Part shown: one piece after another, positions 7,578 to 13,011 of the stretch
Position numbering within the stretch: the first letter of the stretch is position 1
How the letters are laid out: each line of letters opens with the position of its first letter
Assembly: GCA_900549755.1 (NCBI GenBank)
Contig: URPQ01000001.1
Span: 13,947-77,946, forward strand
Direction: 5' to 3'
DNA from: an uncultured Oscillospiraceae bacterium
GTDB taxonomy: Bacteria; Bacillota; Clostridia; Oscillospirales; Acutalibacteraceae
Length of the DNA: 64,000 nt
Translations under genes and position numbers: made by a program
The notes under the pieces: generated by a model
The model's input: the letters and a program-made list of their open reading frames with translations, nothing else
What the model was told of the DNA's origin: nothing
Databases searched by the model: none

Positions 7578-8336
7578 ATGAGATTTCTTATAATAACCAA
7601 AAAACAGCTTATGCTCGGCATATGCGCGCTTATTGCGGTAATCGCCGTTGTAATAGGCTCTGCAACCGCATTTGCCGGAAACGACCGAAAGCTGCCTATC
7701 TACTGCGTTGAAACCGAGAAAAAGCAAATTGCGATTTCATTTGACGCAGCTTGGGGCAACGACGACACTCAAACGCTTATAGATATTTTAAAGGAGTACA
7801 ACGTACCCGCGACGTTTTTCGTTGTCGGCTCGTGGGTGGATAAATACCCCGAATCTGTCAAGGCGCTTTCCGACGCGGGACATCAGGTGCAAAATCATTC
7901 CAACACCCACCCGCATATGCCGCAATTATCAAAGCAGCAAATGCGTGATGAACTTGAAAGCTGCAACAGCAAAATAAAGACGATTACGGGCGTTTGCCCC
8001 ACGCTTTTGCGCCCGCCCTACGGCGATTACGACAACGCGCTTATAGAAACGGTAGACAGCATTAATATGAAAACTATACAGTGGTCGGTTGACAGTCTTG
8101 ACTGGAAAGACAGCGCCACCCCCGACAGTATTTTTAAAAGAGTCACAAGCAATGTAACAAACGGCAGTATAGTCCTTTTTCACAACGACGCCGACCACAC
8201 CCCCGAGGCGCTGCCCGGTATACTTAAATGCCTAAAGGAGCAGGGCTATGAATTTGTGTTTATAAGTGACCTTATTTTAAAGGATAACTACACAATAGAC
8301 CATACCGGCAAGCAGTGCCCCGCCGCAGCCGAATAA
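7578..8336 (+). CDS. polysaccharide deacetylase (NodB-homology CE4 domain, PdaA/PdaB-like), N-terminal TM/signal anchor
   Basis: SFDAAWGND and HSNTHPHM NodB-type motifs; good RBS AAAGGGAG; 252 aa. Confidence 0.8.
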   Translation: MRFLIITKKQLMLGICALIAVIAVVIGSATAFAGNDRKLPIYCVETEKKQIAISFDAAWGNDDTQTLIDILKEYNVPATFFVVGSWVDKYPESVKALSDAGHQVQNHSNTHPHMPQLSKQQMRDELESCNSKIKTITGVCPTLLRPPYGDYDNALIETVDSINMKTIQWSVDSLDWKDSATPDSIFKRVTSNVTNGSIVLFHNDADHTPEALPGILKCLKEQGYEFVFISDLILKDNYTIDHTGKQCPAAAE

Positions 8337-8639
8337 TTAAAAAACACCCTTTCGGGTGCTTGACAAATTTGAAAACTATAATATAGGTGAAATGAAAAAT
8401 CGCCTCCATTGTCCTAAATGGAGCCGGATCATACTCCGGTTCACGCTGCGCCTGCCTAATATAAAAGAGAAACACAGCCGGAATATAAACTGTGTTCCTC
8501 TTTTTTTAAAAGGCGTCCTGAACCTTTAATTCTATTATAATACAAAATTTCAATTTGTTAAGTAGAATTATAAGATTTTTTGGAATATTTTGGAGTTATT
8601 TCTGCATTATGCTATATGAGCATAAAATCAGGTGAATTT

Positions 8640-8860
8640 TAAACCCAAACAAACCCTATTATTACCCGGTGCTTGCCGTGATACTATTGCCCTGCCGCCC
8701 TTTGGTGAAGGCTGCTCCCCACAGTATGGAAAGATAACTATTTTGTCTCCCTCTGAAGAGGGTGCATGTGTCCGGTGGACACCTTTGCCAAAGCAGAAGC
8801 ACCGACCGAGGCGGCAGCCGAGACGGTAGATTTGCCATAGGCAAAGACGAAGGGGTTGTT
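8640..8860. other. GC-rich, highly structured non-coding element of unknown class and strand (candidate ncRNA)
   Basis: GC-rich patch inside an AT-rich intergenic region. Several perfect local hairpins (ccctc-tgaa-gaggg, gtgtcc-ggt-ggacac, ttgcc-ata-ggcaa) and a long-range ggtgctt/aagcacc pairing enclose about 150 nt. Overlapping ORFs have no RBS. Confidence 0.25.
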
Positions 8861-8865
8861 AGAAA

Positions 8866-8894
8866 CCATACGGTACTTTGAAACAAAAATTGGG
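8866..8894 (-). terminator. intrinsic terminator after the rSAM-SPASM gene
   Basis: Minus-strand hairpin ggata-N9-tatcc followed by CAATTTTTGTTT immediately after the stop at 8913. Confidence 0.4.
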
Positions 8895-8912
8895 ATATTT
8901 CCACCCTATCCG

Positions 8913-10241
8913 CTACTTTAAATTTTCAATCTCGAATAATATTTTCTCACGGACATTTTGTATTTTTTGCATTTTACGCTCCTCAGTGCAACTATAGCCA
9001 TCATAATCAGGACATCTTTCAAGATGAATACATTCAGGGTATAGCGGGCATGTTTGACAAATTTCATCACGTGCGCTTAAAGCCTTCCATACAGTAATAT
9101 TTTCTTTTTTAATATTAGAATCATAAATATTTCCCCAGTAGCCACTATCCAAACAATGGTCGCATTTACCAAGGTTGCCATCGGGTAATATTGTAGTACT
9201 TGAATTCGCATCAGCCAGACAGGAATAATATTTAAATGTTCTTCTTAATTTCTTTTTAGAGTTTAAGCCGTAATTCCTAATTTTATCTTCCAACTCAGTA
9301 AGTTTATTCGTGAGTTCCTCTATTTCTGATTCATTTCTTTTTTTTGCTTTTCGAGAATCATATAAAAGAAATACATAAACACTTAAAAGAGATTTATTAT
9401 CTGCAAATTCGGTATTGAGGTAATCTATCAGTTCGGATAAATCATTCTTATTATGTTCATCAAGATTTAAGCGTATAGAGACCTTGATTCCTGCTGATAA
9501 TAACAATTTTATGTTTCTAATCACACGTTCAAACGGATTGGGATCCTCATGTATATAATTCTTAATTCGATTATATACCCTTTCCGTACCGTCCAGTGTG
9601 ATTTGTACCTTATACAAATTCCAATTATTTCTCGCTTTATCTATTAAATCTTGATCAAATAAATACCCGTTTGAAATCATCCATGACTTATATACAGCAT
9701 TATTTGCTTTTAAAAAATTAAATATTGTATCAATAGCAGCTATGTTACACAGTGGCTCACCACCGAATAATTGAATTGTGATATCGTGACCCTTTGATTT
9801 ATCTATCATAAAACGGGCAACATCAACTGCTGTGTCATTGGACATTATTTTCTTTTGAGCTTGCCTTTCAAAGCAATAAAAACATCTGGCATTACAATCT
9901 GTTGTCGGAAAGACAATAAAATTGTTTATATAATTTTGTCGCATAATCAATGAATACAAATTATAAATTTGCTCATAAAACTTTATATCATTAAATTTTT
10001 CCGGTACAAGAATCCAATTTTTAATTAAAAAGTCATATGTTTCTCTGTGTTTAGTTAAATTATTGTATTCATCTTTATCAAGTAAAACCATTTGACGTGT
10101 TAAGCTATTAAAAAGAACAATACTATCCCCTACCTCAGAAACAATTATAAATTGTATAAGTCGAAATTTTTCTTCATTCAAAATTCTTTGTTCTGATAAT
10201 AAGGCGTATATTTCCGGTGGAATTTTACAAATCTCTTTCAC
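8913..10241 (-). CDS. radical SAM / SPASM-domain peptide-modifying enzyme (RiPP maturase-like; sactisynthase/ranthipeptide/QhpD-like class) with about 100-aa N-terminal extension
   Basis: CNARCFYC (CxxxCxxC) rSAM cluster motif. Cys-rich C-terminus (CDHC...CQTCPLYPECIHLERCPDYDGYSC) typical of SPASM twin auxiliary clusters. GTG start with GGAG RBS. Very AT-rich compared with neighbours. Confidence 0.85.
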   Translation of the reverse strand: MKEICKIPPEIYALLSEQRILNEEKFRLIQFIIVSEVGDSIVLFNSLTRQMVLLDKDEYNNLTKHRETYDFLIKNWILVPEKFNDIKFYEQIYNLYSLIMRQNYINNFIVFPTTDCNARCFYCFERQAQKKIMSNDTAVDVARFMIDKSKGHDITIQLFGGEPLCNIAAIDTIFNFLKANNAVYKSWMISNGYLFDQDLIDKARNNWNLYKVQITLDGTERVYNRIKNYIHEDPNPFERVIRNIKLLLSAGIKVSIRLNLDEHNKNDLSELIDYLNTEFADNKSLLSVYVFLLYDSRKAKKRNESEIEELTNKLTELEDKIRNYGLNSKKKLRRTFKYYSCLADANSSTTILPDGNLGKCDHCLDSGYWGNIYDSNIKKENITVWKALSARDEICQTCPLYPECIHLERCPDYDGYSCTEERKMQKIQNVREKILFEIENLK

Positions 10242-10261
10242 TTACATAAACTCCATTATTG

Positions 10262-10297
10262 TTAATTAAAAGCGGTCACTCTTAAGTGACCGCTTTT
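10262..10297 (-). terminator. intrinsic terminator/attenuator between precursor peptide ORF and maturase
   Basis: Minus strand reads AAAAGCGGTCACT-TAAGA-GTGACCGCTTTT then AATTAAC; 13-bp perfect stem plus U-run. Confidence 0.6.
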
Positions 10298-10310
10298 AAA
10301 TTGAACTTTA

Positions 10311-10409
10311 GTCTAAATCGCCTTCAACTTCGCATGTGTACGATGTAGCAACCACATCATTGCAATTCAAATCAACGATATCAACATATGCCTTTTCAAA
10401 TTTCATTAT
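10311..10409 (-). CDS. unannotated 32-aa putative RiPP precursor peptide MKFEKAYVDIVDLNCNDVVATSYTCEVEGDLD
   Basis: Small ORF below the track threshold with a strong RBS (AGGTGGTGA, 6 nt spacer, ATG). It sits 70 nt upstream of the rSAM-SPASM start and is separated from it by an attenuator. Two Cys in an Asp/Glu-rich sequence. Confidence 0.55.
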
Positions 10410-10439
10410 TCTCACCACCTATATTATAATGAAAACATA

Positions 10440-10796
10440 TTAAGAAAAGCGAACAACAGCAGCATCACCATACGCAATCATTGCTGTATAGAAATCAGTA
10501 TATTTTGTTTCAGTAGGATGCTTGGCAATTTGTCCAGCAGCATACGATTCTATAGAATAGGTTCTTGTTACTGAAATTTGTTCATCACCATTATAAAGTG
10601 CAATTGTAAGGGCAGATGAAAGTTCTGTAGACTTTAAATCTCTGCAATACGCATAATAATAACCATTTGCCTTTAACTCAAAGTTAGAGCCGTTATATAC
10701 CAATTCTTTTGAACCATACGAAATAACAAATTTTAAATTGTTAATATCATAGCTAGCAACATCCGCTGATTTAACCGCGCAAACCAATTCTATCAT
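10440..10796 (-). pseudogene. C-terminal segment (118 aa from a putative Met) apparently split by a frameshift from the upstream cohesin-like gene
   Basis: No RBS before the putative ATG. Its frame stays open upstream through the last about 30 codons of the 10820..11968 gene, which suggests one gene split by a 1-nt indel near 10800-10880. Confidence 0.4.
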
Positions 10797-10819
10797 GTCG
10801 GTGCAATTAACAGTATTGC

Positions 10820-11968
10820 TTATAGAAATCCCGGTGCCAGCCTTGTTATCAATTGAAACTGGTGTTCTGGGGTTGCAGTAGCATACTCAGCAATATAAGC
10901 AGCTACACTTTCATATTCATTAACTAAAGCATCCAGTCTGTAGCCACTTCCAAAGAACTTCTGAGCCTCTGCGCCATAATTCAAGACACGAGCAAGGAGA
11001 GTTTTTTGAGCTACAGATGCACTTGTCTTAGTAAACTGACTTGCACAATAATTCAGCACACAAGTAGTGTATGCATTTGAAGACACGTAAATCTCATTAT
11101 TATCAGCATCTACACCGTGGACCTTAAACTCAATTTTATCGCCATACTGACGTGCGTCAAAGCCTTTGAATACAAATCTGTATCTTTTTGCTCCACCTAA
11201 TGTTACCGGAGTCATAGATTCAACATTAACTTTGTCTTCTACATATTTTAAAGTACCGTTGGAATAATCCTCTTTCTTTGCAGAAAGGTACAAATTAGAG
11301 CAGGATGCCCACTGTTCATTATAAAGAACATAAACATTTATGCTAAGTGTGCTTTCAAATGATACAGATTGGTTAAATTTTGCTTCTAATTCAACCGGCG
11401 CAACTGTATTCTTAACAACTACATTAGAATTTCTAAAATCAATGGTGTTTACCCAAGCCTCGCCCTGATCAGCAGCAGTAGCAGTAACATTAACCGCATA
11501 ATTACCATCGGCAGTACCATCAGCTATTTTAACGCTGAAAGTAAGCGTGAGCGAAGGAGTATGCTCATCATATGTATTATCGGATTTAACAAAGTTAAGA
11601 ATATTAACATCTGCAACAGTAGTTACACCTGTGTTTGTGTCAATGCTCTTTTTGAACTGGAAGTTTTCGCCTTCGGCAACATCAGTATCAAATTTGACCG
11701 GCTTACCACGTGTAACATCATACATAGATACAACCGTAAGTTCCTTAGCAAATGTGAACTTAACATGGTGTGCACAAATGCCTTCAATGTTTTGCAGCTT
11801 AGCGGTTACGGTTACGGTTTCGCCCGCTTTGCCTTCTGCTCCTACCATTTCATAAATGGGGGTGGTTGTCTCGTCTGCGGCTGATACGGTCAGGCAACCT
11901 ACGAGTGCGGTTAAGCAAAGGGCTGCCGAAAGTACAAGCGCAAGAGACTTTTTGAAAATCTTTTCCAT
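10820..11968 (-). CDS. secreted/lipoprotein with cohesin-like domain (cell-surface scaffold-like protein); likely continues into 10440..10796 after frameshift
   Basis: Signal peptide with LVGC lipobox or SAA-DE signal-peptidase I site. AGETVTVTAKLQNIEGICAHHVKFTF...YDV...ADGNYAVNVTATAAD resembles type-I cohesin beta-sandwich signatures. The true start is the ATG at 11968 (AGGAGAAAAG RBS), not the upstream-extended track start. Confidence 0.5.
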   Translation of the reverse strand: MEKIFKKSLALVLSAALCLTALVGCLTVSAADETTTPIYEMVGAEGKAGETVTVTAKLQNIEGICAHHVKFTFAKELTVVSMYDVTRGKPVKFDTDVAEGENFQFKKSIDTNTGVTTVADVNILNFVKSDNTYDEHTPSLTLTFSVKIADGTADGNYAVNVTATAADQGEAWVNTIDFRNSNVVVKNTVAPVELEAKFNQSVSFESTLSINVYVLYNEQWASCSNLYLSAKKEDYSNGTLKYVEDKVNVESMTPVTLGGAKRYRFVFKGFDARQYGDKIEFKVHGVDADNNEIYVSSNAYTTCVLNYCASQFTKTSASVAQKTLLARVLNYGAEAQKFFGSGYRLDALVNEYESVAAYIAEYATATPEHQFQLITRLAPGFL

Positions 11969-12357
11969 ATCTTTTCTCCTAACCGGCTTTCGCCATAAAT
12001 ATTTATACGCCGCCTTTCGGCGCCGCTTACCGCAAGCGGCAATGCCACGTTCAGCCACTAACGGTTTTCTTCATTTTATCATTAAAATAAATCTTTGTCA
12101 AGTCTTTAGGAGGTTAATAACCGGTCTGCGGCGGCTAAATATTCCGCCTTGTTTTTGTGCAAATAGACAAATGGCACTACCGGTTGTTTAATATGTTTTA
12201 TAATATGTATAAGGAGCACAAAATATCGTAGGCTGACGAGAACTGAAAAGCCCGAAACGAATATTCTTGTCTCTTTGTATACAATTATATATTTGCTACA
12301 ATAAAAAGCCAAGCATTTTTCATCGTCATTTTTCACCAACATTTGGCAATTCAGACG

Positions 12358-12385
12358 TTAGATATTAGATATTAGATCTTAGACG
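12358..12385. repeat. four tandem heptamers TTAGATA/TTAGATA/TTAGATC/TTAGACG in the divergent intergenic region
   Basis: Direct inspection. Confidence 0.4.
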
Positions 12386-12472
12386 ACGGATTTCGCCGCA
12401 TTTTCCGCATTACTCCCGCTGTGCTTTGCTTTTTTCATAAAAAAGAGTTATAATATGTATAGGTGATAAAAA

Positions 12473-13011
12473 TGGATTATAAAAAACAGGCGTATAACGC
12501 CGCAAAAGAAATAATAGAAATTGCAAATTTAAAAGCGGGGCAAATACTGGTTGTGGGCTGCTCCACAAGCGAAATTTCAGGCGAGAAAATCGGCACCGAT
12601 TCCTCCCCCGATACCGCAAAGGAGGTATTTGCGGGCATTTATGCCGCCGCCGAGGAAAAGGGAGTATTTATAGCCGCGCAGTGCTGCGAGCATTTAAACC
12701 GCGCAATAATCTGCGAGCGAAAAGCCGCGCCCTATGCCGAGCCTGTAAACGTTGTGCCGTTCCCGAAAGCCGGCGGCTCATTTGCAACAGCGGCATACGC
12801 CGCGTTTTCAGATCCGGTGGCACTTGAGGAAATAAAAGCCGACGCCGGGCTTGATATAGGCTTTACGCTTATAGGTATGCACCTTAAAAGGGTTGCCGTG
12901 CCTGTAAGGCTTGAAAATGATTATATAGGCAAGGCGCGTGTGCTTGCGGCAAGAGTGCGCCCGAAATTTATCGGCGGGGAAAGAGCCCACTACAATAAGG
13001 ATTTGCTTTAA
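12473..13011 (+). CDS. UPF0340/DUF436 (YwlG-like, TIGR01440 family) protein
   Basis: ILVVGCSTSEISGEKIGT motif typical of UPF0340; TATAAT -10 and AGGTGA RBS; start taken at the ATG at 12473. Confidence 0.55.

Follow-up and report, generated by a model that had tools for sequence, protein, structure and literature searches.

What sets the balance between a short precursor peptide and the enzyme that probably modifies it, when the two genes follow one another on the same strand behind a gene for a surface lipoprotein? The question is raised by a 64,000-nucleotide (nt) stretch of contig URPQ01000001.1 from an uncultured Oscillospiraceae bacterium (the window), in which a surface lipoprotein gene (SURF), a precursor peptide gene, a terminator-like hairpin and the gene for a radical S-adenosylmethionine (SAM)/SPASM maturase all lie on the minus strand; coordinates throughout are window positions. 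We propose, with a probability of about 0.62, that the three genes form one unit in which the hairpin would stop part of the polymerases behind the precursor gene while read-through feeds the enzyme gene. We infer both the co-transcription and the partial rather than complete termination. The features on which the argument turns are as follows.

10440..11968, minus strand: surface lipoprotein gene SURF (ATG at 11968), 509 amino acids when intact, split in the window by a 1-nt deletion.
10407..10439, minus strand: 33-nt spacer from the lipoprotein gene to the peptide gene, read directly from the sequence, with TATAAT at 10428..10423 and a Shine–Dalgarno (SD) sequence at 10420..10412.
10308..10406, minus strand: precursor peptide gene, an open reading frame (ORF) for 32 amino acids (ATG at 10406, TAA at 10310..10308).
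10268..10297, minus strand: intrinsic-terminator-like hairpin with a perfect 13-bp stem, the 4-nt loop UAAG and the tail UUUUAAUU, counted from the GC core.
10242..10267, minus strand: 26-nt spacer from the hairpin to the enzyme GTG, read directly, with GGAG at 10254..10251 and ATG-TAA at 10247..10242.
8913..10241, minus strand: radical SAM/SPASM peptide maturase gene, 442 amino acids (GTG start at 10241; Pfam Radical_SAM and Fer4_12).

A terminator-like hairpin lies between the precursor and maturase genes

The small ORF is a real precursor gene, representing an uncharacterised radical SAM/SPASM peptide family. Its product, MKFEKAYVDIVDLNCNDVVATSYTCEVEGDLD, divides into the leader MKFEKAYVDIVDLNCNDVVATS and the core YTCEVEGDLD, and is probably modified by the radical SAM enzyme. 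Three Logan contigs of 99% identity to the window (L001–L003) have the same peptide as a called gene, and a metagenome contig (L134, about 98%) encodes it too; the peptide gene shows a single nucleotide change relative to its close relatives, and that change is silent (GCT/GCA). Searches of Pfam and NCBIfam returned no match for the peptide. From the stop of the upstream ORF (TAA, 10442..10440) to the peptide ATG there are 33 nt, close to the 30 nt first estimated, and the gene has a strong SD sequence, AGGTGGTGA (10420..10412). In both the minimum-free-energy (MFE) and the centroid fold of positions 10407–10437 (minus strand), GUUUUCAUUAUA is predicted to pair with the SD region, so this may be an SD-occluding hairpin of the peptide gene. 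Fusion of the peptide to the lipoprotein by stop-codon read-through was rejected: two stops separate them and, while the two are in frame in the window, the same holds in only 6 of 17 loci, the chance level.

The hairpin reads AAAAGCGGTCACT-TAAG-AGTGACCGCTTTT, followed by AATTAAC; its loop is the 4-nt TAAG, one base off the TAAGA of the original prediction. It starts 10 nt past the peptide stop, with the GC core starting at 14 nt. The whole hairpin has a predicted energy of −19.0 kcal/mol and its 9-bp GC core one of −14.7 kcal/mol; both the MFE and the centroid structure predicted for the region contain it, and it stands out from shuffled sequences (z = −4.57). Directly 3' of the GC core runs the interrupted U-tract UUUUAAUU (6 U in 8), whose first four U are able to pair with the upstream A-run. 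A stable GC-rich stem-loop with a U-rich tract just 3' of it has the sequence characteristics of an intrinsic terminator. By our own arithmetic, about 0.006–0.02 perfect 13-bp inverted repeats with a loop of 3–8 nt are expected by chance in 64 kb.

A terminator scan in which the T-run is taken as the tail was run uniformly on relatives and control junctions. It identified the hairpin as the sole strong terminator from the promoter at 12101 to the end of the enzyme gene; the next ones, at 8501..8466 and 8361..8342, lie past that gene. Sequence, fold and scan thus agree with the earlier call of a terminator hairpin and U-tract between the small ORF and the maturase start. Two other identities were ruled out: the hairpin sequence occurs once in the window, so it is not a repeated palindromic element, and no plus-strand gene ends there, so it is not the terminator of a convergent gene. 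No Rfam family could be credibly assigned (E ≤ 1) to the hairpin, to the 5' leader or to the 3' region.

The 26-nt spacer that leads from the hairpin to the enzyme GTG holds an SD sequence, and a promoter scan found no minus-strand promoter-like site with its −10 element inside it; judged by sequence, transcripts of the enzyme gene must therefore cross the hairpin. An ATG-TAA start-stop pair (10242–10247) abuts the GTG, 3' of the same GGAG. The distance from hairpin to enzyme gene is similarly short, 16–34 nt, in several relatives. At the sequence level this is an mccA–mccB-type layout, with a terminator between precursor and enzyme genes on the same strand and no separate promoter in view. 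The hairpin probably limits how much of the enzyme gene is transcribed, and the short interrupted U-tract, the GTG start and the modest SD sequence would all fit a low enzyme output.

The hairpin recurs behind related precursor genes

Related loci were assessed by one uniform rule: a hairpin of −8 kcal/mol or stronger, followed by TTT with at least four T in eight, no more than 75 nt from the stop codon. Such a hairpin follows 27 of 47 non-redundant precursor ORFs, compared with 41 of 348 control junctions between same-strand ORFs of the same loci (odds ratio 10, Fisher p = 1.4e-11). In the lipoprotein-linked subgroup the strict rule picks out about 24 of 30 by hand count, and in most of the others the hairpin is strong but its tail is poorer. 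No sequence is common to the stems (for example GGCTGCC/GGCGGCC, GCAGCTTGC/GCAAGCTGC and GGGTGTCTC/GAGGCACCC). The GC stem begins 2–29 nt past the stop (median 14), while the distance from stem to next gene varies between 16 and 240 nt; the tight spacing on one side and the loose spacing on the other assign the hairpin to the 3' end of the precursor gene. Together with the promoterless 26-nt spacer, this recurrence lends comparative support to the suggestion that the maturase may be expressed by partial terminator read-through.

Loci of the Bacteroidales type have a terminator in only 2 of 15 cases. Six of them (L019, L021, L024, L025, L029 and L053) share a 48-nt imperfect hairpin, TTGTGCTCAGTAGAAATCCGCAAGCAAGTGAAGTTCTACTGAGCACGA, about 40 nt before the enzyme start; it is conserved in sequence, has no T-tail and stands in the terminator's place. 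L204, an allele that lacks the radical SAM enzyme, has no terminator behind its peptide gene; instead a hairpin at 8895–8935 of that contig (AAGGCGGTAAA...TTTACCGCCTT) encloses the start codon of a ScmC-like gene, which suggests that damping there may be translational and not transcriptional.

The lipoprotein and peptide genes are predicted to share a promoter

The frame at 10440..10796, originally treated as a gene of its own, is instead the 3' part of the 509-amino-acid SURF, as intact relatives of 99% identity make clear. The window has two ORFs (10820..12058 and 10440..10796) where L001–L003 and L134 have the intact ORF. One C is gone from a run of five at 10872..10869, a run complete in all four of these relatives, and this is the sole gap against L001 across a 3.6-kb alignment. 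A sequencing error in the homopolymer, a pseudogene or phase variation could each account for the loss.

In 23 of 80 loci found through the enzyme alone, ORF clustering places a member of the SURF family immediately upstream in the same orientation, and in the SURF-linked peptide subgroup SURF is upstream in nearly every locus for which upstream sequence exists. This synteny and, as the strongest evidence, the joint replacement of the genes between near-identical flanks, seen in contigs with the leader motif of the window and described below, support the claim that the surface-protein gene belongs to the same unit. Three further features precede it.

12152..12166, minus strand: conserved box CTATTTGCACAAAAA upstream of the promoter, some 50 nt from its −35 hexamer and unique in the window.
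12073..12101, minus strand: predicted unit promoter, TTGACA, 17 nt and a TG-extended TAAAAT, the best site in 8500..12500 (11 of 12 matches plus the TG).
11969..12066, minus strand: 5' leader, about 100 nt long, for which three hairpins are predicted (−35.4 kcal/mol, z = −2.27).

Equivalent promoters (TTGxxx/TGnTAtAAT) stand before SURF in 12 other loci; every SURF for which upstream sequence exists has a strong extended −10 promoter, and in the window the promoter sits in the flank that is kept between alleles. The box is possibly a regulator binding site. Related boxes (GACTATTTACACAAAAAA, GACTATTCGCACAAAAAA) are similarly placed upstream of SURF in L006, L028, L030, L054 and L064, with weaker ones in L058 and L075; matches with up to two mismatches are not rare by chance.

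The leader was compared with those of twelve other loci (L006, L009, L012, L028, L030, L032, L054, L058, L064, L075, L076 and L080). Its three-hairpin layout recurs with different sequences. The last hairpin is a mini-hairpin, GGC-GAAA-GCC (11994..11985), located 4 nt before AGGAG (11980..11976); a scripted tabulation found it in 13 of 13 leaders, with GGG/CCC variants, ending 2–7 nt before AGGAG. It abuts GGTTAGGAGAA, and the two hairpins that precede it vary in sequence. RNAalifold returned no pairs on a MAFFT alignment of the 13 leaders, an alignment that is not structure-aware. The leader may be an undescribed cis-regulatory or stabilising element.

Across 24 loci the gap from SURF to the peptide gene measures 17–125 nt (median 41.5) and is usually AT-rich and free of hairpins. 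Promoter-like sites in the 125 nt ahead of the peptide ATG are weak and little more frequent than in control windows inside SURF: they turned up in 6 of 22 loci, compared with 62 of 440 control windows (14%); all but one of the sites before the peptide match just 9 of 12 positions, and the window allele has none. These short gaps, the lack of a consistent peptide promoter and the strong promoter before SURF give comparative support to the prediction that the peptide is co-transcribed with the lipoprotein gene.

Weighing partial read-through against its alternatives

In the mechanism that we propose, transcription would start at the extended −10 promoter (12101..12073), and the transcript would cross the structured leader of about 100 nt, SURF and the 33-nt spacer into the peptide gene. 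There the 13-bp hairpin with its U-rich tail, 10 nt past the peptide stop, would halt a fraction of the polymerases, so that a transcript of SURF and peptide would outnumber the read-through transcript that also bears the enzyme gene. The GTG start and modest SD sequence would further hold the enzyme low relative to its substrate.

Several observations weigh against this. SURF is frameshifted in the window; should the frameshift be genuine, the early stops it creates 380 nt upstream might alter the expression of what follows. The standard terminator scan did not list the hairpin, probably since the T-run is taken up by the stem. With four U and then AAUU, the U-tract is short, and it can pair with the A-run, so that its efficiency is not predictable; termination could be near-complete or weak. 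Peptides of the MKEAYE..IIFAS subgroup mostly come without a terminator. Other points concern the junction between SURF and the peptide gene. In L037 a terminator follows SURF and a clear promoter (TTGACA/TG-TAATGT) precedes the peptide, L058 has a terminator-like hairpin after SURF, and in L199–L201 the gap, 125 nt long, holds a hairpin that lacks a T-tail. In the window itself the AT-rich TATAAT beside the SD sequence could act as a weak promoter. As some relatives hold a hairpin or promoter after SURF, independent transcription of the peptide does occur within the family, and co-transcription is likely to be the state of the window allele and not a family-wide rule.

The alternative that survives best follows from these junctions: the peptide gene would have its own promoter, in the end of SURF or in the spacer, SURF would be transcribed separately, and the hairpin would still attenuate the enzyme gene. 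L037 and L058 show such arrangements, L126 has a 10/12 site whose −10 element ends 15 nt before the ATG, and the window offers the TATAAT at 10428..10423 and three 9/12 sites in the 3' region of SURF (10759..10730, 10681..10653 and 10631..10603). Yet sites of that quality are at chance level (22 found, 15.8 ± 3.8 expected). The TATAAT lies 2 nt from the SD sequence, no −35 element passed the scan, and a transcript starting from it would begin inside the SD, which bears out the earlier judgement that it is too near the ribosome-binding site to be a promoter. Spacers of 17–20 nt in L004, L043 and L069 are too short to hold one, and the promoter scan ahead of the peptide ATG points the same way. 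We regard a separate peptide promoter in the window as unlikely.

A second alternative concerns the hairpin itself, which might not mainly be an attenuator. It could be an efficient transcript end, leaving the enzyme gene silent or rarely transcribed, or a 3' stabiliser or processing barrier that shields the precursor mRNA from exonucleases. The strong, perfect stem (−19 kcal/mol) would suit either role. The strong hairpins without a proper T-tail in L034, L054, L080, L016 and L048 are a better fit for a stabiliser than for a terminator, and in microcin C transcript stability contributes part of the transcript excess (PMC4231749). Most of the hairpins do carry T-tails, however, and stabilising and terminating are not exclusive; the enzyme gene is intact, 99% conserved in relatives and presumably expressed, yet has no promoter of its own. 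We consider it distinctly improbable that attenuation is not the hairpin's main role.

It is very improbable that the unit is decaying in this genome, with SURF a pseudogene, accessory genes gone and the regulatory features relics: although a 1-nt deletion in a C-run splits SURF and no genes for ScmC-like, PqqD, signal-peptidase-like or dedicated ATP-binding cassette (ABC) exporter proteins lie beside the cassette, the deletion is the sole gap in 3.6 kb, falls in a homopolymer and may be a sequencing error, L001–L003 and L134 have the same cassette with SURF intact, and L093 and L199–L201 also have three genes only, so that the three-gene form appears maintained.

The maturase and its peptide family

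Pfam Radical_SAM (PF04055) matches the 442-amino-acid enzyme with 58 bits. The radical SAM motif CX3CX2C (C116/C120/C123) is invariant in 30 homologues, and the SPASM cysteines follow as C341-X13-G-X4-C360, then C395-X2-C398-X5-C404-X5-C410 and C418; six of these seven C-terminal cysteines are invariant in the alignment and C360 is nearly so. Named NCBIfam maturase families (TIGR04463, CefB, Clo7bot, PapB and SCIFF TIGR03974) all score far below their cut-offs, the best being TIGR04463 (126 against 525 bits), with PapB at 73 against 340 bits and SCIFF at 51 against 425 bits. A PDB search by sequence detected only CteB (phmmer E = 2e-9, 145 residues).

The enzyme model (predicted local distance difference test (pLDDT) score 90, predicted template modelling score (pTM) 0.88) can be aligned from end to end with CteB, TigE, SuiB and SkfB, with template modelling (TM) scores of 0.62–0.65 to 5WHY, 5WGG and 8VPO (CteB, TigE); the CteB alignment covers 445–471 columns. 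Residues 1–100 form an N-terminal beta-strand/helix domain in the model, a candidate for a leader-binding (RRE/PqqD-like) domain. Pfam finds no PqqD match in the window enzyme, and homologue P0110 has one. Judged by its predicted structure, the enzyme is probably a CteB-like RRE–radical SAM–SPASM protein; it falls outside every named family.

The most likely reaction would be thioether cross-linking from a core cysteine. A cysteine is present in YTCEVEGDLD and in nearly all enzyme-linked cores. Among cassettes behind the same leader and signal peptide, those whose cores contain cysteine have the enzyme, and the cysteine-free L119 and L204 have no enzyme, a comparison restricted to the alleles with enough downstream sequence (these two). 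The pairing fits a cysteine-dependent chemistry such as thioether formation.

Database searches returned 3,697 relatives of the enzyme at E ≤ 0.001, the nearest non-self protein being 46% identical, and at least 534 stretches in species-representative genomes encode one. Their hosts are gut and rumen Oscillospiraceae, Acutalibacteraceae and Lachnospiraceae, together with Prevotella and other Bacteroidales. Peptides of the Firmicutes type have a common leader, M-K-x-x-[LV]-E-I-V-x-[FL]-x-x-x-D-V-[VI]-T-T-S, and behind it an acidic core that is short and contains 1–3 cysteines; a hidden Markov model of this leader found 51 ORFs in 45 loci, nearly all beside the enzyme family. The Bacteroidales-type small ORF begins MEGKKKFEKPQMEVVKLK. 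Fuller clusters also encode a P-loop protein with weak likeness to ScmC, PqqD as a separate protein, a protein resembling signal peptidase I and, in some cases, an ABC exporter. None of these genes adjoins the window cassette, and those for the ScmC-like, PqqD and signal-peptidase-like proteins were not found anywhere in the window. In the paper library searched, we found no description of the enzyme and peptide family, of its link to a lipoprotein or cohesin, or of pherotype-like radical SAM peptide loci.

Four Bacteroidales loci have a gene for a lipoprotein of 326–366 amino acids upstream of the enzyme gene (L008 772–1752, L062 231–1328, L068 2340–3440 and L083 4956–5987), immediately upstream in L008 and L083. 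The C-terminus of the lipoprotein resembles a core peptide in L008, L062 and L068 (..NDWEKEELCPTCTPVAW, ..EEEDTCSTCYPVAF), and these loci showed no separate small ORF for a precursor; there the lipoprotein tail may itself be the substrate.

The lipoprotein has a predicted cohesin-like domain

SURF begins with the lipoprotein signal peptide MEKIFKKSLALVLSAALCLTALVG|C, with the lipobox LVGC, which is nearly invariant in 50 aligned homologues. These came from a word-based search that required shared 5-residue words. The homologues (P0121–P0240) are 22–54% identical to P0121 and have invariant columns only in the signal peptide; this invariance is partly an effect of how they were ascertained, yet L006, L028 and L030, found through the enzyme, have this signal peptide too. 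An AlphaFold model built with the 50 homologues (pLDDT 85) has a beta-sandwich at residues 38–185 that matches type I cohesins (TM 0.66–0.70, target-normalised). Past this cohesin-like domain the model predicts two modules, each a beta-sandwich with a helical hairpin. Against Pfam and NCBIfam, SURF has sub-threshold matches only, among them Cohesin (PF00963, 17.7 bits, below the cut-off of 24.1), and a precomputed PF00963 match exists for many of the homologues.

The unit is replaced as a block between near-identical flanks

The limits of the replaceable segment were obtained by blastn of the window against contigs whose flanks are 97–99% identical to it.

8423..11846, minus strand: replaceable cassette relative to L093.
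8394..11392, minus strand: replaceable cassette relative to L201 and L199, from the same comparison.
8423..8912, minus strand: allele-specific 3' region; DNA identity to L093/L201 resumes only below 8422/8393.

In L093, L118 and L199–L201 the enolase, DUF436, polysaccharide deacetylase and PyrH proteins are 98–100% identical to those of the window and the flanking DNA is 94–99% identical; the contigs with such flanks are most likely from the same species. Within the cassette limits blastn found nothing alignable between the window and L093, L199 or L201. The enzymes of L093, L118 and L199–L201 are 38–39% identical to that of the window, and their peptides are MKFEKAEIQVISLNVNDVVTASDDCASLLEWD and MNKAELDIVLFNVNDIVATSVDPCDDCACDVPNVFMG. 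SURF identity between alleles is 78–100% over the first 40 residues and then drops to about 20–45%. The drop is immediate except in L201 and L204, in which it comes past residue 190 or so, at the end of the cohesin module. L204 is a fourth allele at the same site and encodes SURF, a cysteine-free Gly-rich peptide, a ScmC-like protein, PqqD and a protein with an acetyltransferase domain, with no radical SAM enzyme. At least four unalignable alleles thus occupy one site between DUF436/enolase and deacetylase/barstar/pyrH. Because near-identical flanks carry unalignable versions, the SURF body, peptide, terminator and enzyme are swapped as one block, while promoter, leader and signal peptide stay fixed. 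No sensor kinase or response regulator was found in or beside the cassette.

At least nine different peptides stand behind the same leader and signal peptide in metagenomes. The scan of metagenomes used a gapped leader pattern that was too permissive: it gave 120 matches, 19 of which (L087, L093, L106 ... L201) are followed by the signal peptide MEKIFKKSLAL..., and the remaining ones look like chance.

The allele-specific 3' region contains the terminator at 8501..8466 (−18.1 kcal/mol) and, after the enzyme gene, a GC-rich element at about 8662..8904 that is present once in the window. The contigs L001–L003 end inside this element, which suggests that it is a genomic repeat; its spurious translation (..KQKHRPRRQPRR) resembles one in the L028 cluster (8243–8485). 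A weak Rfam match to Gut-1 RNA (8335–8398, plus strand; 27 bits against a gathering threshold of 50, E = 0.033) falls at the bidirectional terminator after the deacetylase gene and is probably due to chance.

These findings lead us to a broader proposal, which we put forward tentatively, as a possibility and not as our expectation. The locus may represent an undescribed kind of strain-specific cassette in gut Clostridia, in which a fixed promoter, leader and signal peptide, sometimes with the cohesin module, would drive swappable blocks, each pairing variable C-terminal domains of SURF with a matching modified peptide and its enzymes. SURF would be the specific partner of the peptide (a receptor, display scaffold or immunity protein), the alleles would be recognition or incompatibility types, and the terminator would set a high ratio of SURF and peptide to enzyme. 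In one branch of the family the peptide–enzyme pair is consistently preceded by the gene for a cohesin-fold lipoprotein. If SURF and the peptide do interact, this would be a new pairing of modified peptide and surface protein, with strain-level recognition or antagonism in gut communities as a testable outcome, and the few alleles at one locus provide a natural experiment for that interaction.

Comparison with known systems

A leaky terminator after a precursor gene is a standard route to much substrate and little enzyme. Weak terminators follow the structural genes of lantibiotics and sactipeptides (nisA–nisB, sboA–albA) and allow limited read-through into the biosynthetic genes; those systems differ from the window cassette in their enzyme classes and in having dedicated immunity and export genes.

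The closest likeness in layout is to microcin C, in which an intrinsic terminator between mccA and mccB yields a short precursor transcript in abundance and a long one as a minor species, a layout kept in Helicobacter without sequence conservation (Zukher et al. 2014, PMC4231749). In both systems a terminator separates a short precursor gene from the gene for the enzyme whose substrate is the encoded peptide, there is one upstream promoter (predicted in the present case), and the arrangement recurs while the sequences do not. They differ in that the precursor gene comes first in microcin C and second here, after a 509-amino-acid lipoprotein gene. Termination in microcin C also depends on a ribosome bound to mccA, whereas nothing suggests ribosome control here: with the GC core beginning 14 nt past the stop, a terminating ribosome would barely touch the hairpin.

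On the side of the enzyme, the predicted three-part fold, the CX3CX2C motif and the seven SPASM cysteines are shared with CteB (with its substrate CteA, of thermocellin, a SCIFF-type ranthipeptide), TigE, SuiB and SkfB. Like CteA, the substrate here consists of a leader and a short, cysteine-containing acidic core; unlike the CteA/CteB pair, to which sequence similarity is minimal, the core has one or two cysteines instead of six. Fuller relatives share a ScmC-like protein and PqqD with SynChlorMet-type cassettes, at scores far below the cut-off (23 against 125 bits), but the window cassette lacks ScmC-like and PqqD genes.

In agr specificity groups and comQXP pherotypes, the replaced block comprises the peptide gene, the enzyme that modifies the peptide and a portion of a surface or membrane protein, and the flanks are near-identical. 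The present locus resembles them in having a hypervariable block between conserved flanks within what is most likely one species. It differs in having no histidine kinase or response regulator in the cassette or beside it, and its alleles differ even in enzyme class, with a radical SAM enzyme in one and ScmC-like, PqqD and acetyltransferase proteins in another. Set beside these systems, the terminator after the precursor gene is an ordinary, known scheme; the link to SURF and the swappable cassette are less ordinary.

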